Source: a phage
DNA: 29,205 nt
Direction: 5' to 3' (one strand)
Assembly (NCBI GenBank): GCA_021683455.1
Contig: GCA_021683455.1_3051.3
Below the pieces are notes generated by a model. The model had not been told where the DNA came from. It did no database searches and saw only the letters and a list, made by a program, of their open reading frames with translations. Position 1 is the first letter of the stretch. Each line of letters opens with the position of its first letter. Below, one piece after another: positions 2 to 26,148 of the stretch. Position numbers and translations under genes: made by a program.

Positions 2-427
2 ACGCGTGAAGAAGCTATTAAATGCGAGTTATATTATCAACGATTGCATGATGCAGTTAAAAATCCATTATTCTTTAATATGTCATATGCTGCTCCAGAA
101 GGTTCATTTGGAAGAGATAATAAAGGACAAAATCATCCATTATATGGTTCTCATAATTGTAAAGGAAATATACATTCACATGATCCATTAACAGGAAAAT
201 CTGCCTTTTTGCCTTATATTCCAGAAGGTTATGTAAAAGGAAGGTCAAATAAATTTAAAGCTTCATCACATAATAAAGGTAAAAAATGGTATAATAACGG
301 AGTTAAGCAAATGTTATGTCATGAACCTCCTGGTCCTGAATGGACAAAAGGAAAAATTAAAGAACTGGTTTCAAAAGCAGCTAAATTAGGATGGAAAAGA
401 CACCATGAAAATACTAAACTTGGGTGA
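2..427 (+). CDS. 5'-truncated ORF of unknown function; C-terminal region carries motifs reminiscent of homing-endonuclease linker/DNA-binding modules
   Basis: Frame is open from window start (first in-frame codon at 2); the ORF-track start at 44 is a TTG. Motifs GQNHPLYGSHN and KGKKWYNNG resemble repeated modules of phage GIY-YIG/HNH homing endonucleases (recalled from memory, not searched). Overlaps gene 47 start by 23 nt. Confidence 0.35.
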   Translation, partial: TREEAIKCELYYQRLHDAVKNPLFFNMSYAAPEGSFGRDNKGQNHPLYGSHNCKGNIHSHDPLTGKSAFLPYIPEGYVKGRSNKFKASSHNKGKKWYNNGVKQMLCHEPPGPEWTKGKIKELVSKAAKLGWKRHHENTKLG

Positions 428-3803: not shown

Positions 3804-4193
3804 ATGACTAAAATTACTGTGAATTATACTGTTGATGTAAAAGATATTCAGCCAAAACACGTGCGTTCTGACTCAAATCCGCAAAACCAAAATAAAATTC
3901 GTCGCGCATGGGTTTTGTCTCTTTCTGATAACGCAATGGAAGTTATTCAGAACAAAATTAAATCTGCACCTGCTCGTCATGCATATTATGAAGCTATCGA
4001 TCGTGAAGTAAGTAATAAATGGATTGAACTAATGCGCAAACATACGACAGAATCTCTAAATGCTGGTGCTAAATTTATTATGACTTCATGCGGTGAACGC
4101 CTTGAAGATGATTATTGCGGTAATGCAGATGAACGTCTAATTGTTGCTGCTCAAATTGTTGCGGAAACAATTGCTGCTGATTTTAATCGTTAA
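3804..4193 (+). CDS. rpbA: RNA polymerase-binding protein RpbA
   Basis: 129 aa, same length and position (between 46 and 45) as T4 rpbA; sequence recognised from memory. Confidence 0.7.
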
Positions 4194-7182: not shown

Positions 7183-9879
7183 ATGAAAGAATTTTATATC
7201 TCTATTGAAACAGTCGGAAATAACATTGTTGAACGTTATATTGATGAAAACGGAAAGGAACGTACTCGTGAAGTAGAATATCTTCCAACTATGTTTAGGC
7301 ATTGTAAGGAAGAGTCAAAATACAAAGACATCTATGGTAAAAACTGCGCTCCTCAAAAATTTCCATCAATGAAAGATGCTCGAGATTGGATGAAACGAAT
7401 GGAAGACATCGGTCTCGAAGCTCTCGGTATGAACGATTTTAAACTCGCTTATATCAGTGATACATACGGTTCAGAAATTGTTTATGACCGAAAATTTGTT
7501 CGTGTAGCTAACTGTGACATTGAGGTTACTGGTGATAAATTTCCTGACCCAATGAAAGCAGAATATGAAATTGATGCTATCACTCATTACGATTCAATTG
7601 ATGATCGTTTTTATGTTTTCGACCTTTTGAATTCAATGTATGGTTCAGTATCAAAATGGGATGCAAAGTTAGCTGCTAAGCTTGACTGTGAAGGTGGTGA
7701 TGAAGTTCCTCAAGAAATTCTTGACCGAGTAATTTATATGCCATTCGATAATGAGCGTGATATGCTCATGGAATATATTAATCTTTGGGAACAGAAACGA
7801 CCTGCTATTTTTACTGGTTGGAATATTGAGGGATTTGACGTTCCGTATATCATGAATCGCGTTAAAATGGTTCTCGGTGAACGTAGCATGAAACGCTTCT
7901 CTCCAATCGGTCGAGTAAAATCTAAACTTATCCAAAATATGTACGGTAGCAAAGAAATTTATTCTATTGATGGCGTATCTATTCTTGATTATTTAGATTT
8001 GTATAAGAAATTCGCATTTACTAATTTGCCGTCATTCTCTTTGGAATCAGTTGCTCAGCATGAAACCAAAAAAGGTAAATTACCATACGACGGTCCTATT
8101 AATAAACTTCGTGAGACTAATCATCAACGATACATTAGTTATAACATCATTGACGTAGAATCAGTTCAAGCAATTGATAAAATTCGCGGGTTTATCGATC
8201 TAGTTTTAAGTATGTCTTATTACGCTAAAATGCCTTTTTCTGGTGTAATGAGTCCTATTAAAACTTGGGATGCTATTATTTTTAACTCATTGAAAGGTGA
8301 ACATAAGGTTATTCCTCAACAAGGTTCGCACGTTAAACAAAGTTTTCCGGGTGCATTTGTATTTGAACCTAAACCAATTGCTCGTCGATATATTATGAGT
8401 TTTGACTTGACGTCTCTGTATCCGAGCATTATTCGTCAGGTTAACATTAGTCCTGAGACTATTCGTGGTCAGTTTAAAGTTCATCCAATTCATGAATATA
8501 TCGCAGGAACAGCTCCTAAACCGAGTGATGAATATTCTTGTTCTCCGAATGGATGGATGTACGATAAGCATCAAGAAGGTATCATTCCAAAGGAAATCGC
8601 TAAAGTATTTTTCCAGCGTAAAGATTGGAAAAAGAAAATGTTCGCTGAAGAAATGAATGCCGAAGCTATTAAAAAGATTATTATGAAAGGCGCAGGGTCT
8701 TGTTCAACTAAACCGGAAGTTGAACGATATGTTAAGTTCAGTGATGATTTCTTAAATGAACTATCGAATTATACTGAATCTGTTCTCAATAGTTTGATTG
8801 AAGAATGTGAAAAAGCAGCTACACTTGCTAACACAAATCAGCTGAACCGTAAAATTCTTATTAATAGTCTTTACGGTGCTCTTGGTAATATTCATTTCCG
8901 TTACTATGATTTGCGAAATGCTACTGCTATCACAATTTTCGGCCAAGTTGGTATTCAGTGGATTGCTCGTAAAATTAATGAGTATCTGAATAAAGTATGT
9001 GGAACTAATGGCGAAGATTTCATCGCAGCAGGTGATACTGATTCGGTATATGTTTGTGTAGATAAAGTTATTGAAAAAGTTGGTCTTGACCGATTCAAAG
9101 AGCAGAACGATTTAGTTGAATTCATGAATCAGTTCGGTAAGAAAAAGATGGAACCTATGATTGATGTTGCATATCGTGAGTTATGTGATTATATGAATAA
9201 CCGTGAGCATCTGATGCATATGGACCGTGAAGCTATTTCTTGTCCTCCACTTGGTTCAAAGGGTGTTGGTGGTTTTTGGAAAGCGAAAAAGCGTTATGCT
9301 CTGAACGTTTATGATATGGAAGATAAGCGATTTGCTGAACCGCATCTAAAAATCATGGGTATGGAAACTCAACAGAGTTCAACACCAAAAGCAGTGCAAG
9401 AAGCTCTTGAAGAAAGTATTCGTCGTATTCTTCAAGAAGGCGAAGAGTCTGTCCAAGAATATTACAAAAACTTCGAGAAAGAATATCGTCAACTTGACTA
9501 TAAAGTTATTGCTGAAGTAAAAACTGCGAACGATATAGCGAAATATGATGATAAAGGCTGGCCAGGATTTAAATGCCCGTTCCATATTCGTGGGGTGCTA
9601 ACTTATCGTCGAGCTGTTAACGGTTTAGGTGTAGCTCCAATTTTGGATGGAAATAAGGTAATGGTTCTTCCATTACGTGAAGGAAATCCATTTGGTGACA
9701 AATGCATTGCTTGGCCGTCGGGCACAGAACTTCCAAAAGAAATTCGTTCTGACGTACTGTCTTGGATTGACTACTCAACTTTGTTCCAAAAATCGTTTGT
9801 TAAACCGCTTGCGGGTATGTGTGAATCGGCAGGTATGGACTATGAAGAAAAAGCTTCGTTAGACTTCCTGTTTGGCTGA
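7183..9879 (+). CDS. 43: DNA polymerase gp43 (family B, with 3'-5' exonuclease)
   Basis: 898 aa; exonuclease motif CDIEVTG, polymerase motif A DLTSLYPS, motif B KILINSLYG, motif C AGDTDS, KKRY motif. Contiguous ORF with no intein- or intron-like interruption. Confidence 0.95.
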   Translation: MKEFYISIETVGNNIVERYIDENGKERTREVEYLPTMFRHCKEESKYKDIYGKNCAPQKFPSMKDARDWMKRMEDIGLEALGMNDFKLAYISDTYGSEIVYDRKFVRVANCDIEVTGDKFPDPMKAEYEIDAITHYDSIDDRFYVFDLLNSMYGSVSKWDAKLAAKLDCEGGDEVPQEILDRVIYMPFDNERDMLMEYINLWEQKRPAIFTGWNIEGFDVPYIMNRVKMVLGERSMKRFSPIGRVKSKLIQNMYGSKEIYSIDGVSILDYLDLYKKFAFTNLPSFSLESVAQHETKKGKLPYDGPINKLRETNHQRYISYNIIDVESVQAIDKIRGFIDLVLSMSYYAKMPFSGVMSPIKTWDAIIFNSLKGEHKVIPQQGSHVKQSFPGAFVFEPKPIARRYIMSFDLTSLYPSIIRQVNISPETIRGQFKVHPIHEYIAGTAPKPSDEYSCSPNGWMYDKHQEGIIPKEIAKVFFQRKDWKKKMFAEEMNAEAIKKIIMKGAGSCSTKPEVERYVKFSDDFLNELSNYTESVLNSLIEECEKAATLANTNQLNRKILINSLYGALGNIHFRYYDLRNATAITIFGQVGIQWIARKINEYLNKVCGTNGEDFIAAGDTDSVYVCVDKVIEKVGLDRFKEQNDLVEFMNQFGKKKMEPMIDVAYRELCDYMNNREHLMHMDREAISCPPLGSKGVGGFWKAKKRYALNVYDMEDKRFAEPHLKIMGMETQQSSTPKAVQEALEESIRRILQEGEESVQEYYKNFEKEYRQLDYKVIAEVKTANDIAKYDDKGWPGFKCPFHIRGVLTYRRAVNGLGVAPILDGNKVMVLPLREGNPFGDKCIAWPSGTELPKEIRSDVLSWIDYSTLFQKSFVKPLAGMCESAGMDYEEKASLDFLFG

Positions 9880-10026: not shown

Positions 10027-10063
10027 ATCAATATCAACTACTGATACAGATTTGGAGAATAAA

Positions 10064-10300
10064 ATGAAAATTGTTATGGGATGCTTAGCAGTTTGTTTAG
10101 CTGCATTAGCAGCAGTTCCATTTGTTAGTGTTGAAAATGATACTCAACCTGTGATTGAATCTAGCACCGTTATTCACACTAATGGTAAAATATCAGTTAA
10201 AATTGATGATAATCTTCATGTGAATACAAATGGGTCTTTAGGTGTGCAAATGGGTAATATCTGCATAAGCACTACTGGAGTAATTACTACTTGCATTTGA
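10064..10300 (+). CDS. Small secreted/membrane protein with N-terminal signal peptide
   Basis: ATG at 10064 with GGAG SD; hydrophobic N-terminus MKIVMGCLAVCLAALAAV; first gene after an early promoter. The ORF-track start at 10052 is a TTG. Confidence 0.5.
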   Translation: MKIVMGCLAVCLAALAAVPFVSVENDTQPVIESSTVIHTNGKISVKIDDNLHVNTNGSLGVQMGNICISTTGVITTCI

Positions 10301-10310
10301 GGAAATTATT

Positions 10311-10950: not shown

Positions 10951-11096
10951 AAAGCAAAATTATAACAGTGTTGCTTTTAATCTTGATGATTATAATAAGT
11001 ATATACTATAGTGTAACGGTTCCTCCTATGATTCCAACTATTATTTTAGGTTGGGGTTTATTACTGTTACAAGTTAAATATGAATGTATCAATTGA
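10947..11096 (+). CDS. Small single-pass membrane peptide (49 aa)
   Basis: ATG overlaps the preceding stop (ATGA); hydrophobic core ITVLLLILMIIISIYY; below the 60-aa ORF-track cutoff. Confidence 0.4.
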   Translation: MKSKIITVLLLILMIIISIYYSVTVPPMIPTIILGWGLLLLQVKYECIN

Positions 11097-11103
11097 GGTT
11101 TAA

Positions 11104-11844
11104 ATGATTAGTGACTCTATGACAGTTGAAGAAATCCGTCTTCATTTGGGGCTTGCATTAAAAGAAAAAGATTTCGTAGTTGATAAAACTGGTGTTAAAA
11201 CTATTGAAATTATTGGCGCATCATTTGTAGCAGATGAACCGTTTATTTTTGGCGCTCTTAATGATGAATACATTCAGCGCGAACTTGAATGGTATAAATC
11301 TAAGAGTTTGTTTGTTAAAGATATTCCAGGTGAAACACCGAAGATTTGGCAACAAGTAGCATCTTCTAAAGGCGAAATTAACTCGAATTATGGTTGGGCT
11401 ATTTGGTCAGAAGATAACTATGCCCAGTATGATATGTGTTTAGCTGAACTTGGTCAAAACCCTGATTCTCGACGTGGTATCATGATTTATACTCGTCCAT
11501 CCATGCAATTTGACTACAATAAAGATGGTATGTCAGATTTCATGTGTACTAATACAGTACAGTACCTGATTCGTGATAAGAAAGTCAATGCAGTAGTAAG
11601 CATGCGCTCAAATGACGTGGTCTTCGGATTCCGTAATGATTATGCATGGCAAAAATACGTATTAGATAAATTAGTATCTGATTTGAATGCCGGCGATTCA
11701 ACTCGTCAGTATAAAGCAGGTTCTATTATATGGAATGTTGGAAGTCTTCATGTATATTCTCGTCATTTTTACTTGGTTGATCATTGGTGGAATACTGGCG
11801 AAACTCATATTGTGAAAAAAGACTATAAAGGTGAGTGGAAATGA
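11104..11844 (+). CDS. 42: dCMP hydroxymethylase gp42
   Basis: 246 aa, the T4 gp42 length; thymidylate-synthase-like fold with candidate catalytic Cys in FMCTN. Confidence 0.9.
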   Translation: MISDSMTVEEIRLHLGLALKEKDFVVDKTGVKTIEIIGASFVADEPFIFGALNDEYIQRELEWYKSKSLFVKDIPGETPKIWQQVASSKGEINSNYGWAIWSEDNYAQYDMCLAELGQNPDSRRGIMIYTRPSMQFDYNKDGMSDFMCTNTVQYLIRDKKVNAVVSMRSNDVVFGFRNDYAWQKYVLDKLVSDLNAGDSTRQYKAGSIIWNVGSLHVYSRHFYLVDHWWNTGETHIVKKDYKGEWK

Positions 11845-12683
11845 TTCAATTCGTAATTCCAAGTTATCAGCGTGTCGGGGCAGTTTCTGCCCTTGATATG
11901 TTTCCGACTGATTATGAACCCCATATTGTAGTGCGTGAACATGAAGAAAAAGCTTATTATGATGCCTATGGGTCTAGAGCTAAAATTATAACTATTCCTG
12001 ATGATGTAAACGGAATTGCCGGTACTCGTAAAGCAATTACTGATATGTATGCAGGTCAACGAATCTGGATGATTGACGATGATACTACTATTCGTATGAG
12101 TTCAATGCGAAAAAGAGATGACCGTCGTTGTGTAGATAAAGTCAATCAATTGACTCATGAACAGTTCTATGAATTGATTCAATACGTCGAAGATGCCATG
12201 GATTGCGGGTATTATCACGGTCATGCTCGCCTACCAATTTTTAAAATTACTTCATCTTGGGGTAATTATCGTGAAAACTCATATGGATTCACGAATACAT
12301 GGTATGACCTCGGAAAACTTACGACAGAACAAATTGGGTATGGAAAAATTGATTTGTGCGAAGATATGTATGCATTTCTCAATTTAATTAATCAAGGTTA
12401 TCCGCATTTGGCCTTGTTCAAATATCTGGTTGTATCTGGAAAAGCACAAGCTCCTGGCGGGTGCAGTTCAATTCGTAGTAATTCTAAACATAATAGAGCG
12501 CTTGAGCAAATCAATAGAGAGTTTCCAGAGCAAGCTCGTTGGAAAACTTCTAATATTGAAAAACGAAAATCGTTGGGTGAAGAAGACGAGCCATTAAAGG
12601 TTCTTCGCATGTGTGTTTCACGTAAAGAAAAATCAGAAGCATTTCATAAGTTTAATGCTATTCATCCAATAGCAGTTGATTAA
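11841..12683 (+). CDS. Putative DNA-sugar glycosyltransferase (GT-A/GT2-like), occupying the locus where T4 carries beta-glucosyltransferase
   Basis: 281 aa from ATG 11841 (ATGA overlap with gene 42 stop); N-terminal FVIPSYQR and acidic WMIDDD (DXD-like) motifs typical of GT-A fold transferases; does not resemble T4 beta-gt as I recall it. Confidence 0.55.
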   Translation: MIQFVIPSYQRVGAVSALDMFPTDYEPHIVVREHEEKAYYDAYGSRAKIITIPDDVNGIAGTRKAITDMYAGQRIWMIDDDTTIRMSSMRKRDDRRCVDKVNQLTHEQFYELIQYVEDAMDCGYYHGHARLPIFKITSSWGNYRENSYGFTNTWYDLGKLTTEQIGYGKIDLCEDMYAFLNLINQGYPHLALFKYLVVSGKAQAPGGCSSIRSNSKHNRALEQINREFPEQARWKTSNIEKRKSLGEEDEPLKVLRMCVSRKEKSEAFHKFNAIHPIAVD

Positions 12684-12707
12684 TGCCTAAATTTATTGTG
12701 TTATAAT
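12683..12707 (+). promoter_or_regulatory. Possible middle-type promoter upstream of uvsX
   Basis: Imperfect MotA-box ATGCCTAA (12683..12690), 11-nt spacer, TATAAT (12702..12707). Confidence 0.35.
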
Positions 12708-12760
12708 TACTCTATCTTTAACCAGTGAGGAAAATATAATGATGCCTATGGAAAAAATGA

Positions 12761-13942
12761 ATGTCTATTGCAGATTTAAAATCCCGTTTGATTAAAGCTT
12801 CCACTTCTAAAATGACTGCTGAACTGACTACATCTAAATTCTTTAATGAAAAGGATGTAATCCGTACAAAAATCCCAATGCTTAATATTGCTATTTCTGG
12901 TGCGATTGATGGCGGTATGCAGTCTGGTTTAACTATTTTCGCAGGGCCTTCTAAACACTTTAAATCAAATATGTCTTTGACTATGGTTGCAGCATATTTG
13001 AACAAATATCCTGACGCGGTTTGTCTATTCTATGATAGTGAATTTGGTATTACTCCAGCTTATTTACGATCCATGGGAGTTGACCCGGAACGAGTAATTC
13101 ATACGCCGATTCAGTCAGTTGAACAGCTGAAAATTGATATGGTGAATCAGCTTGAAGCTATTGAGCGTGGTGAAAAAGTTATTGTATTCATCGACTCAAT
13201 CGGTAATATGGCTTCTAAGAAAGAAACGGAAGATGCCTTGAATGAAAAATCTGTGGCAGATATGACTCGTGCTAAATCGCTGAAGTCATTATTCCGTATT
13301 GTTACTCCTTACTTTAGCATTAAAAATATTCCATGCGTTGCGGTTAACCATACAATTGAAACAATTGAAATGTTTAGTAAAACCGTGATGACAGGTGGTA
13401 CAGGCGTAATGTATTCGGCTGATACTGTATTCATTATCGGTAAACGTCAGATTAAAGATGGTTCTGATCTTCAGGGGTATCAATTTGTTCTAAATGTAGA
13501 AAAATCTCGTACCGTTAAAGAAAAAAGTAAATTCTTTATTGATGTTAAATTTGACGGTGGTATCGATCCTTATTCTGGATTGTTAGATATGGCTCTAGAA
13601 TTAGGATTTGTAGTAAAACCTAAAAATGGTTGGTATGCTCGTGAATTTCTTGACGAAGAAACCGGCGAGATGATTCGCGAAGAAAAATCTTGGCGTGCAA
13701 AAGATACCAACTGCACTACATTCTGGGGTCCTTTATTTAAGCATCAACCATTCCGAGATGCTATTAAACGTGCTTATCAGTTAGGTGCTATTGATAGTAA
13801 TGAAATTGTTGAAGCTGAAGTTGATGAATTGATTAATTCAAAGGTTGAAAAATTTAAATCTCCAGAAAGTAAAAGTAAATCAGCTGCTGATTTAGAAACT
13901 GACCTCGAGCAGTTAAGTGATATGGAAGAATTTAATGAATAA
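12761..13942 (+). CDS. uvsX: Recombinase UvsX (RecA/Rad51-like)
   Basis: 393 aa; Walker A GPSKHFKS, Walker B-like VIVFIDSIG; N-terminus MSIADLKSRLIKASTSK resembles T4 UvsX. Confidence 0.9.
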   Translation: MSIADLKSRLIKASTSKMTAELTTSKFFNEKDVIRTKIPMLNIAISGAIDGGMQSGLTIFAGPSKHFKSNMSLTMVAAYLNKYPDAVCLFYDSEFGITPAYLRSMGVDPERVIHTPIQSVEQLKIDMVNQLEAIERGEKVIVFIDSIGNMASKKETEDALNEKSVADMTRAKSLKSLFRIVTPYFSIKNIPCVAVNHTIETIEMFSKTVMTGGTGVMYSADTVFIIGKRQIKDGSDLQGYQFVLNVEKSRTVKEKSKFFIDVKFDGGIDPYSGLLDMALELGFVVKPKNGWYAREFLDEETGEMIREEKSWRAKDTNCTTFWGPLFKHQPFRDAIKRAYQLGAIDSNEIVEAEVDELINSKVEKFKSPESKSKSAADLETDLEQLSDMEEFNE

Positions 13943-22420: not shown

Positions 22421-23044
22421 ATGATTATTAATCTTGCAGATGTTGAACAGTTATCTATAAAAGCTGAAAGCGTTGATTTTCAATATGATATGTATAAAAA
22501 AGTCTGTGAAAAATTTACTGACTTTGAGCAGTCTGTTCTTTGGCAATGTATGGAAGCCAAAAAGAATGAAGCTCTTCACAGACAGTTGAATAAAATCATT
22601 AAAAAGCATTTAACTAAATCGCCTTATCAATTATATCGTGGTATATCAAAATCGACAAAAGAACTTATTAAAGATTTACAAGTTGGAGAAGTGTTTTCAA
22701 CGAACAGGGTAGATTCATTTACTACTAGTTTGCACACAGCATGTGGTTTTTCTTATTTTGAGTATTTCACTGAAATAATTTTTCGCTTAAAAACTGATAA
22801 AGCTTTTAATTATTCTGACCATATCAGCGATATTATACTTTCTTCTCCTAATACTGAGTTTAAGTACACGTATGAAGATACTGACGGGTTAGATTCAGAA
22901 AGAACTGATAACTTAATGATGATTGTGCGTGAACAAGAATGGATGATTCCAATTGGAAAGTATAAAATAACTTCTATTTCAAAAGAAAAATTACACGATT
23001 CATTTGGAACATTTAAAGTTTATGATATTGAGGTAGTTGAATGA
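22421..23044 (+). CDS. modB: ADP-ribosyltransferase ModB
   Basis: 207 aa, the T4 ModB length; R-S-E motifs of mono-ADP-ribosyltransferases (LYRGIS, FSTNR, EQEWMIP); GGAGG SD; own early promoter. Confidence 0.7.
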   Translation: MIINLADVEQLSIKAESVDFQYDMYKKVCEKFTDFEQSVLWQCMEAKKNEALHRQLNKIIKKHLTKSPYQLYRGISKSTKELIKDLQVGEVFSTNRVDSFTTSLHTACGFSYFEYFTEIIFRLKTDKAFNYSDHISDIILSSPNTEFKYTYEDTDGLDSERTDNLMMIVREQEWMIPIGKYKITSISKEKLHDSFGTFKVYDIEVVE

Positions 23045-23641
23045 AATACTCAGTAATGCAACTAAAAGATTTTAAAATAAAATCAATGGATGCATCGGTG
23101 CGTGCTTCTATTCGTGAAGAATTACTTTCTGAAGGGTTTAATTTATCTGAAATTGAACTTTTAATTCATTGTATTACTAATAAGCCAGATGACCATACTT
23201 GGTTAAATGAAATAATCAAATCTCGTTTGGTTCCAAACGATAAACCTCTTTGGAGAGGTGTTCCAGCTGAGACTAAGCAGGTGTTAAATCAAGGAATTGA
23301 TATTATTACATTTGATAAAGTCGTATCAGCTTCATATGATAAAAATATAGCTCTACATTTTGCTTCCGGTTTAGAGTATAACACAGGTTATTTTTGAATT
23401 CAAAGCTCCTATGGTATTCAATTTCCAGGAGTATGCTATAAAAGCTCTACGCTGTAAAGAATACAATCCAAACTTTAAGTTTCCGGATAGCCATCGTTAT
23501 CGTAATATGGAATTAGTTTCAGATGAACAAGAAGTAATGATACCAGCTGGAAGTGTATTTAGAATTGCAGATAGATATGAGTATAAAAAGTATTCAACAT
23601 ACACTATCTATACTCTTGATTTTGAAGGATTTAATCTATAA
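23041..23641 (+). pseudogene. modA: modA-like ADP-ribosyltransferase with interrupted reading frame
   Basis: N-terminal ORF 23041..23397 (118 aa, with LWRGV and VSASYD motifs) ends at TGA; the catalytic EQEVMIP region continues in the +1 frame, which is open from 23375 to 23641 (the ORF track lists it from ATG 23411). Break point is at a T5 run (23391..23395). Confidence 0.55.
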
Positions 23642-23699
23642 TGGAAGGACTTAGATTCATTATACCATGAAATTTTTAAAGCATTTTTACATAAAGTTG

Positions 23700-23729
23700 T
23701 TTACAAGCTAAGGTAAAAATGTTATAGTA
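23700..23729 (+). promoter_or_regulatory. T4-type early promoter upstream of the srd-like gene
   Basis: AAAGTTGTTTACA context; -35 TTTACA (23700..23705), 17-18-nt spacer, -10 TATAGT (23724..23729). Confidence 0.5.
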
Positions 23730-23763
23730 TAGTAGTCAACCGTCCGTAAGATGTGAGAAAAAT

Positions 23764-24519
23764 ATGAAACTGCATAATATGTCTAATAATCAAATTCGTA
23801 AAATTAAACGTCGTTTAGAGCATACTCAGGCATCTGCTAAAAGACGTTCTAAAGATTTTAACTTAGACTTCAATTACATTAAGAACATTTTAGATCAAAA
23901 AGTTTGTGCCTATTCGGGAGAACCTTTTGATAATCGTATTGAAGGAGAGAAATTATCATTAGAACGTTTTGATAATAACATTGGATACATTAAAGGGAAC
24001 GTTATTGCAGTAAAGAAAAAGTATAATACATTTCGTTCTGATTATACTTTAGAAGAGTTGATTGAAAAGCGTGATTTATTTGCTTTGCGAATTGGTCGTT
24101 CATCTGCGAAAAAAGTTCATAAACTAAATTTAGATGAAAAGAAATGGGCTAAAATCAAAAAGACTTATAATCAAATTAAAGCTATACAGAAAAAACGTGA
24201 AAACCGAATTGAACACATTTCTCAGCTTTCTAAATCAAAACAAACTTCTGACGTTAAGCTAACGATTATAGCACTTAAAGCTCGTATTGATGGTTCTCGT
24301 ATAGCAGAAGGTGCTGAAGTTGTTAAACTGAACGTTCTTCTTAAAGGCTCGGATTGGAAAATTGTGAAAAAGTTGTCAGAAGCAGAAATGCAATATGATA
24401 TGTGTGATAAAATTATTCAAGGTGTAGAGCGGTATCAAAACTTGTCTTTTATTGATAAACTTAAACTGAAAAGAGGATACCCGCTAAATTGTTCAATTTT
24501 TAAACTTATCCGAGGATAA
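23764..24519 (+). CDS. srd: Basic hypothetical protein, positionally equivalent to T4 srd
   Basis: 251 aa; Lys/Arg-rich; own early promoter; located between modA and dda. Symbol assigned by synteny only. Confidence 0.4.
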   Translation: MKLHNMSNNQIRKIKRRLEHTQASAKRRSKDFNLDFNYIKNILDQKVCAYSGEPFDNRIEGEKLSLERFDNNIGYIKGNVIAVKKKYNTFRSDYTLEELIEKRDLFALRIGRSSAKKVHKLNLDEKKWAKIKKTYNQIKAIQKKRENRIEHISQLSKSKQTSDVKLTIIALKARIDGSRIAEGAEVVKLNVLLKGSDWKIVKKLSEAEMQYDMCDKIIQGVERYQNLSFIDKLKLKRGYPLNCSIFKLIRG

Positions 24520-24520
24520 T

Positions 24521-24832
24521 ATGGTTTATGTATATGCGATAGTTTACCGAGACAAAGACGGATTTACGGCGCCAGTTCCGCTTGATGAACATCGTCCTGC
24601 TGTATTTTTTGAATGGAATATTGCTGACAAAGTATTTACCACTCTTAAAGAGCAGTATCGACTAGCTTTAGGTATGGGAATTCCAAGATTAGTTGAAACT
24701 CCACGCAAGTTTTGGTTTAATAAAATAGAAGTTAAACACGTTAAGCCTGATGTAGACACACAAAGATTATATCGGCGAATTTTAGATACTGGGCGTGTTG
24801 TTAGTATTCCAATTGCAGGGACTTTCCGATGA
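24521..24832 (+). CDS. Small hypothetical protein (dda.1-like position)
   Basis: 103 aa; GAGGA SD; stop overlaps the dda start (ATGA). Confidence 0.5.
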   Translation: MVYVYAIVYRDKDGFTAPVPLDEHRPAVFFEWNIADKVFTTLKEQYRLALGMGIPRLVETPRKFWFNKIEVKHVKPDVDTQRLYRRILDTGRVVSIPIAGTFR

Positions 24833-26148
24833 CATTTGATGATTTGACAGAAGGCCAGAAAAATGCCTTTAACATCGTTATGAGGGCTATTAAAGAAAAG
24901 AAACATCATGTAACTATTAATGGACCTGCTGGTACTGGTAAGACTACTCTTACTAAGTTCATCATTGAAGCTTTAATATCAACAGGCGAAACTGGTATCA
25001 TTTTGGCAGCTCCTACACATGCAGCTAAAAAGATTCTTTCAAAACTGTCGGGGAAAGAAGCGAGTACTATTCACAGTATTCTTAAAATTAACCCAGTTAC
25101 GTATGAAGAAAATGTTCTTTTTGAACAGAAGGAAGTACCAGATTTAGCTAAATGCAGGGTATTAATCTGCGACGAAGTGTCAATGTATGATAGAAAGCTA
25201 TTTAAAATTCTGCTTTCGACTATTCCGCCGTGGTGCACAATAATTGGAATAGGTGATAATAAGCAAATTAGACCTGTTGACCCAGGAGAAAACACTGCTT
25301 ATATCAGTCCATTTTTTACACACAAAGATTTTTATCAATGTGAACTTACTGAAGTTAAACGCAGTAATGCTCCTATTATTGATGTAGCTACTGATGTTCG
25401 CAACGGTAAGTGGATTTATGATAAAGTTGTTGACGGTCATGGAGTACGTGGATTTACTGGTGATACCGCTTTACGCGATTTTATGGTAAATTATTTTTCA
25501 ATCGTCAAATCACTAGATGATTTGTTTGAAAATCGCGTAATGGCATTTACGAATAAATCTGTTGACAAGTTAAATAGCATTATTCGTAAAAAGATTTTTG
25601 AAACTGATAAAGATTTTATTGTCGGTGAAATTATTGTAATGCAAGAACCGTTAATTAAAACGTATAAAATTGACGGAAAACCGGTATCAGAAATTATTTT
25701 TAATAACGGACAATTAGTTCGTATTATAGAAGCAGAGTATACATCAACCTTTGTTAAAGCTCGTGGTGTTCCTGGAGAATATCTAATTCGTCATTGGGAC
25801 TTAACAGTAGAAACTTACGGCGATGATGAATATTATCGTGAAAAGATTAAAATAATTTCATCTGATGAAGAGCTATATAAGTTTAACCTATTTTTAGGTA
25901 AAACGGCAGAAACTTATAAAAATTGGAACAAAGGCGGAAAAGCTCCATGGAGTGATTTTTGGGATGCTAAATCACAGTTCAGTAAAGTGAAAGCACTTCC
26001 TGCATCAACATTCCATAAAGCTCAGGGTATGTCTGTAGACCGTGCTTTCATTTATACGCCTTGTATTCATTATGCAGATGCTGAATTAGCTCAACAACTT
26101 CTTTATGTTGGTGTAACACGTGGTCGTTATGATGTGTTTTATGTGTGA
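24829..26148 (+). CDS. dda: DNA helicase Dda (SF1B)
   Basis: 439 aa; Walker A GPAGTGKTT, motif II CDEVSM, GDNKQ, motif VI VGVTRGR. Confidence 0.9.
   Translation: MTFDDLTEGQKNAFNIVMRAIKEKKHHVTINGPAGTGKTTLTKFIIEALISTGETGIILAAPTHAAKKILSKLSGKEASTIHSILKINPVTYEENVLFEQKEVPDLAKCRVLICDEVSMYDRKLFKILLSTIPPWCTIIGIGDNKQIRPVDPGENTAYISPFFTHKDFYQCELTEVKRSNAPIIDVATDVRNGKWIYDKVVDGHGVRGFTGDTALRDFMVNYFSIVKSLDDLFENRVMAFTNKSVDKLNSIIRKKIFETDKDFIVGEIIVMQEPLIKTYKIDGKPVSEIIFNNGQLVRIIEAEYTSTFVKARGVPGEYLIRHWDLTVETYGDDEYYREKIKIISSDEELYKFNLFLGKTAETYKNWNKGGKAPWSDFWDAKSQFSKVKALPASTFHKAQGMSVDRAFIYTPCIHYADAELAQQLLYVGVTRGRYDVFYV

Follow-up and report, generated by a model that had tools for sequence, protein, structure and literature searches.

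Which glycosyltransferase stands downstream of gene 42 in this phage, and what sugars would it leave on the hydroxymethylcytosine (hmC) of the phage DNA? The question matters because the defences by which a host can attack a phage depend on the sugar pattern of its hmC. An initial annotation had proposed that a GT-A type transferase replaces the beta-glucosyltransferase gene (beta-gt) of T4 at this position and that a different hypermodification of the DNA is implied.

The window, by which we mean the whole stretch of 29,205 nucleotides that was analysed, represents the early/replication region of a T4-like coliphage (Tequatrovirus). Genes 47, 46, rpbA, 45, 44, 62, regA, 43, imm.1, imm, 42, ba-gt, uvsX, 40 and 41 follow one another in that order, all on the plus strand, and this order is colinear with that of phage AR1, at 95-98% DNA identity. 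The features at and around the transferase gene are:

7183-9879, plus strand: gene 43
11104-11844, plus strand: gene 42, dCMP hydroxymethylase, 246 aa (Pfam PF00303 and identity to T4 gp42)
11827-12772, plus strand: segment without DNA homology to T4 (blastn of the window against T4)
11830-11844, plus strand: putative coupling junction, GGTGAGTGG then ATGA (read from the sequence)
11841-12683, plus strand: ba-gt (also ggt or TAGT), almost certainly encoding a beta-glucosyl-HMC-alpha-glucosyltransferase, 280 aa
12761-13942, plus strand: uvsX

Synteny was established at this locus, with ba-gt lying between gene 42 and uvsX as in the annotation of AR1, T2 and T6. The gene 42 product matched the thymidylate-synthase family PF00303 (58 bits) and is identical to T4 gp42 at 238 of 246 residues (97%), the differences being clustered in the last 17 residues; gene 42 is likewise annotated in AR1, T2 and T6.

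The reading frame of ba-gt runs from an ATG at 11841-11843 to a TAA at 12681-12683, exactly where the initial annotation had placed it, and its 843 nt comprise 280 codons and a stop; the length of 281 aa given earlier included the stop codon. The proposed overlap with gene 42 was also found, as the gene 42 stop TGA (11842-11844) lies on the ba-gt start codon to form an ATGA at 11841-11844. The purine-rich, Shine-Dalgarno-like GGTGAGTGG at 11830-11838 is situated 3-11 nt 5' of the ba-gt ATG, and T2 and T6 have identical DNA at this junction. Gene 42 therefore appears, as judged from the sequence, to be translationally coupled to ba-gt, with co-expression via the ATGA overlap. A GTG start at 11835 was set aside because the ATG is the annotated start in T2, AR1 and QOTSP and M-IQFVIPSY opens the family alignment. 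A consensus scan for promoters around the ba-gt locus gave results no better than shuffled sequence, and no credible promoter or terminator signal was detected by consensus scanning of the gene 42/ba-gt interval, which is consistent with co-transcription of the two genes. Within ba-gt codons 13-18 the terminator scan flagged a perfect 7-bp GC-rich hairpin (GGGGCAG-TTT-CTGCCCT; 11877-11893, plus strand) followed by a weak T-tract; the sequence is also present in T2 and T6 and may represent an mRNA structure.

Elsewhere in the window, an ORF of 82 aa, hydrophobic at its N-terminus (10052-10300, plus strand), lies between gene 43 and imm.1; positions 10078-10310 had no DNA match in T4, and the AR1 equivalent is annotated as hypothetical (ar1_049). 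The ADP-ribosyltransferase gene modA (23041-23641, plus strand) is split into ORFs of 118 and 76 aa with a break near 23381, where, relative to the intact 200-aa AR1 gene, one AC unit is absent from an ACACAC run; the split gene is either a frameshifted pseudogene or the product of a sequencing error.

Comparison with T4 by blastn established the boundaries of the swapped segment. Homology to T4 DNA stops at 11826, in the last codons of gene 42, and restarts at 12773, at the start of uvsX, with 946 bp here in place of approximately 1.9 kb of T4 DNA that carries beta-gt and the homing endonuclease gene segA (T4 record ~23556-25496). Unlike in T4, there is no segA between ba-gt and uvsX (12684-12772), where the intergenic spacer is just 77 nt. 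The best BLASTP segment between the ba-gt protein and the 351-aa T4 beta-gt was 10 residues long (E = 0.28), and a Pfam search of the ba-gt protein gave no match to PF09198. Together, these data upheld the earlier proposal that a different transferase, with no full-length alignment to T4 beta-gt, occupies the beta-gt slot next to gene 42. Synteny of the TAGT gene with T4 beta-GT has also been stated by the authors of a study of phage QOTSP, one of the Durham-collection Tequatroviruses with HPLC/MS nucleoside data (PMC13390438). In a 2026 survey, the combination of alpha-GT and TAGT was the majority state in T4-like phages, with the alpha-GT and beta-GT of T4 being found in only 6 of 753 genomes (PMC13216743).

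The identity and family membership of the protein were established by several searches. It is identical at all 280 residues to the annotated beta-glucosyl-HMC-alpha-glucosyltransferase of AR1, and it differs from the QOTSP enzyme at two positions (278/280, 99.3%; D24N and H106R) and from that of T2 at three (277/280, 98.9%; R11H, H106R and P251S). Against the reading frame in the T6 GenBank record the identity is 277/280 with an amber counted (Q10 amber, Y40N and D55G), and at the DNA level the QOTSP locus is 98.8% identical to that of the window. Megablast of positions 11000-12900 identified 640 phage records, the best of them 98.5-99.1% identical; where they align with the ORF, these mostly bear the annotation "beta-glucosyl-HMC-alpha-glucosyl-transferase". 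The same annotation predominates in the 689 phage records found by tblastn with the protein, 472 of which are at least 95% identical and which include T2, RB32 and RB6. The protein also matched Pfam PF20691 (TAGT, "TET-associated glycosyltransferase") with 39.1 bits against a gathering cut-off of 27.5, over profile positions 2-205 of 205, and PHROG 842 (phrog_842, "beta-glucosyl-HMC-alpha-glucosyltransferase") with E = 6e-89; its basic C-terminal 70 residues fall outside the Pfam domain. The Pfam score, the PHROG match and the number of tblastn records establish ba-gt as a genuine gene rather than an ORF that arose by chance. Based on these data, we are highly confident that 11841-12683 encodes the T2/T6-type beta-glucosyl-HMC-alpha-glucosyltransferase (ba-GT, g-gt, TAGT; PF20691), a second-sugar transferase that the initial annotation had listed as one alternative and that is now favoured by the T2 identity, both family matches, synteny and the literature on near-identical genes. 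Gene, product and position alike are already known, as this is the T2/T6 ba-GT itself, on record for decades and included in the annotation of hundreds of genomes. Winkler and Rüger reportedly cloned and sequenced the T2 and T6 genes in 1993.

The two motifs noted earlier, FVIPSYQR and WMIDDD, are both present, and a third segment is of interest with regard to catalysis:

11850-11873, plus strand: FVIPSYQR, residues 4-11, first strand and loop of the nucleotide-sugar-binding Rossmann-like domain
12066-12083, plus strand: WMIDDD, residues 76-81, DXD-type motif D79-D80-D81
12357-12365, plus strand: C-E-D, residues 173-175, candidate catalytic base

In a family alignment of 10 sequences, which was also the input for an AlphaFold2 model, I6, P7, S8, Y9 and R11 are invariant, as are M77, D79, D80, D81 and D175, and E174 is nearly invariant. 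A sequence search of the PDB for a solved structure of this family returned only chance matches (E > 1), and we therefore relied on the model and a fold search. The model is of moderate confidence (pLDDT 70, pTM 0.72); its N-terminal alpha/beta domain is good, and residues 126-151 and 203-211 have pLDDT below 50. A strand at residues 3-7 (pLDDT ~88) falls within the FVIPSYQR region, and WMIDDD comes after a strand at residues 74-77, as in GT-A enzymes. With this moderate-confidence model, the fold search matched GT-A glycosyltransferases only (chondroitin synthases, TarP and GalNAc-transferases), so that the fold class is GT-A with a DXD-type motif and not the two-domain GT-B fold. By analogy with GT-A enzymes in general, FVIPSYQR would have a role in UDP binding, and D79-D80-D81 is the presumed site for a divalent metal and the diphosphate of UDP-glucose. 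The catalytic base of GT2 enzymes lies ~95 residues after the DXD motif. Judged by conservation and spacing, D175 of the C-E-D segment is a candidate for the base in catalysis by an inverting GT-A enzyme. A 2026 NAR paper presented an AF3 model of T6 TAGT that is GT-A and sister to GT2, with alpha-GT and beta-GT being GT-B (PMC13216743). The agreement of our model and the invariant residues with that paper indicates that the GT-A/DXD reading in the initial annotation was right.

For the chemistry and the knockout phenotype we draw on published work on near-identical genes. In the proposed pathway, gp42 would make hm-dCMP, hmC would then be built into phage DNA, and a phage alpha-glucosyltransferase, probably encoded just upstream of the window, would put alpha-linked glucose on about three-quarters of the hmC. 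ba-GT, using a metal coordinated by its DDD motif to bind UDP-alpha-glucose, would then add a second glucose from host UDP-glucose in beta-1,6 linkage to produce gentiobiosyl-hmC. Such a step would invert the UDP-alpha-glucose linkage to beta, which fits a GT2-like inverting GT-A enzyme. Deletion mutants of T6 showed that the gene is required for conversion of alpha-glucosyl-hmC to gentiobiosyl-hmC, only alpha-glucosyl-hmC being left without it (PMC11078745; bioRxiv 10.64898/2026.02.25.707755). In QOTSP DNA, HPLC/MS found 5-hmdC at about one-third and alpha-gentiobiosyl-mdC at about two-thirds, beta-glucosyl-mdC being absent (PMC13390438). The T6 deletions and the QOTSP nucleosides are the literature basis on which ba-GT of this phage is predicted to carry out beta-1,6 transfer from UDP-glucose onto alpha-glucosyl-hmC DNA.

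The window opens within an endonuclease gene that would separate alpha-gt from gene 47; alpha-gt itself is not in the window. Positions 2-427 (plus strand, frame 2) encode a homing endonuclease of the HNH type, of which the C-terminal part lies in the window (phrog_10820, E = 4e-55); its end, at 427, overlaps the start of gene 47 at 405. In ECO4, the closest genome, this endonuclease sits between alpha-gt and gene 47, and in AR1 and T6 alpha-gt is directly upstream of gene 47; based on this placement in the closest genomes, we infer that alpha-gt is present in this phage. ECO4 and REP3 carry the phrog_10820 endonuclease at this position, whereas T6 and AR1 lack it and T4 has 47.1 instead; it has the look of a mobile element inserted into the interval from alpha-gt to gene 47.

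Among known systems, the ba-gt genes of T2, T6 and AR1 share with the window gene its length and its position between gene 42 and uvsX, and those of T2 and T6 the ATGA coupling; beyond the T2 and T6 substitutions given above, nothing of substance sets them apart. T4 beta-glucosyltransferase (PF09198, 351 aa) resembles ba-GT in occupying the slot downstream of gene 42, in its UDP-glucose donor and beta linkage, and in acting after alpha-GT. It differs in having a GT-B rather than a GT-A fold, with no sequence similarity, and its acceptor is bare hmC, whereas that of ba-GT is alpha-glucosyl-hmC; in addition, the T4 gene is followed by segA and does not overlap gene 42, unlike ba-gt. Cellular inverting GT-A enzymes of the GT2 family (such as BcsA, TarP and chondroitin polymerase) are only 6-17% identical to the ba-gt protein, which differs from them in using a sugar on DNA as its acceptor and in being small and soluble with its basic C-terminal 70 residues.

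Of the alternatives to efficient second-sugar transfer, the one that survives best is that the activity of this allele is low, as in T2, and yields a few percent of gentiobiosyl-hmC in DNA that is mainly mono-alpha-glucosylated. We consider this unlikely, though it has precedent in the T2 gene, which at 98.9% identity yields only about 5% gentiobiosyl-hmC; the published value for T6 is 72%, a 14-fold gap (bioRxiv 10.64898/2026.02.25.707755). The T2 and T6 enzymes are ~98-99% identical, and a gap of this size between near-identical enzymes means that the extent of di-glucosylation is not predictable from sequence. The Durham phages fall into two classes (PMC13390438). The intermediate ratios of three of them, EL, BGP and Geo, also lend some weight to low activity. 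Against it, the window protein is only two residues from the enzyme of QOTSP, with its roughly two-thirds gentiobiosylation, and at R11, invariant in the family, and P251, nearly so, it has retained the residues that T2 has changed (R11H and P251S; T2 ba-gt, NC_054931.1 1501-2343).

The two T2 substitutions are a possible cause of the low gentiobiosyl-hmC of that phage. That small allelic differences in ba-GT, and not expression or partner effects, set the extent of gentiobiosylation is a decidedly doubtful reading in our view. If it were true, an allele with the consensus at both positions, such as that in the window, would give high di-glucosylation like that of T6 and QOTSP, and the long-known gap between T2 and T6 would be testable by a two-residue swap.

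The T6 record (MH550421.1 ~3951-3953, minus strand) has TAG where the window (11868-11870) and T2 have CAG, at ba-gt codon 10. As a consequence the T6 CDS 'ggt' is annotated from Met20, with 261 aa and without the strand bearing the invariant IPSYQR. An amber at this codon is odd given the 72% gentiobiosyl-hmC of T6, and it could be a mutation of the stock, a sequencing error or the sign of a functional, N-terminally shortened enzyme.

It is very improbable that the protein is a first-sugar transferase acting on bare hmC and so performs the function of T4 beta-gt through another fold, even though ba-gt lies exactly in the T4 beta-gt slot and some phages with TAGT homologues have neither alpha-GT nor beta-GT (PMC13216743). 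Phages with a near-identical gene have no beta-glucosyl-mdC and leave about one-third of their hmC bare (PMC13390438), and T6 without the gene retains alpha-glucosyl-hmC and lacks gentiobiosyl-hmC. Classical work on the T2 and T6 enzymes reportedly found no transfer of glucose to unglucosylated hmC DNA.

Transfer of a non-glucose sugar, such as the arabinose of RB69-like Mosigvirus phages, is hardly conceivable here despite the general variation in sugars among T-even relatives, as the protein is identical or near-identical to enzymes of phages with gentiobiose DNA, gp42 is of the T4 type and not the diverged 5-hydroxy-dCMP synthase of arabinosylating phages, and no sugar-precursor gene cluster was found among the window ORFs or in the syntenic AR1 annotation. 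The 97% identity of gp42 to the T4 enzyme points to hmC as the base, and not the 5-hydroxy-C of arabinosylating Mosigviruses. Like ba-GT, the DNA arabinosyltransferases of the Mosigviruses RB69 and NP are phage-encoded and attach sugar, as the first or the second unit, to modified cytosine; they are described as having a 5-hydroxy-dC precursor and a different sugar, and the loci involved differ from that of ba-gt, one being a sugar-precursor cluster and the other lying near rIIA. Of the different hypermodification implied by the initial annotation, then, a second sugar on glucosyl-hmC is supported and a non-glucose sugar is not.

Recognition of ba-gt predicts DNA chemistry of the T6/T2 type, and not of the T4 type, for this phage. 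Gentiobiosyl-hmC DNA resists the Brig1 glycosylase in vitro (PMC11078745), and BapA is unable to remove glucose from it (bioRxiv 10.64898/2026.02.25.707755); it is still cut by GmrSD/BrxU-type enzymes (PMC13390438; PMC13216743). Although it brings no new biology, the recognition of ba-gt is useful for annotation and for the prediction of host range.
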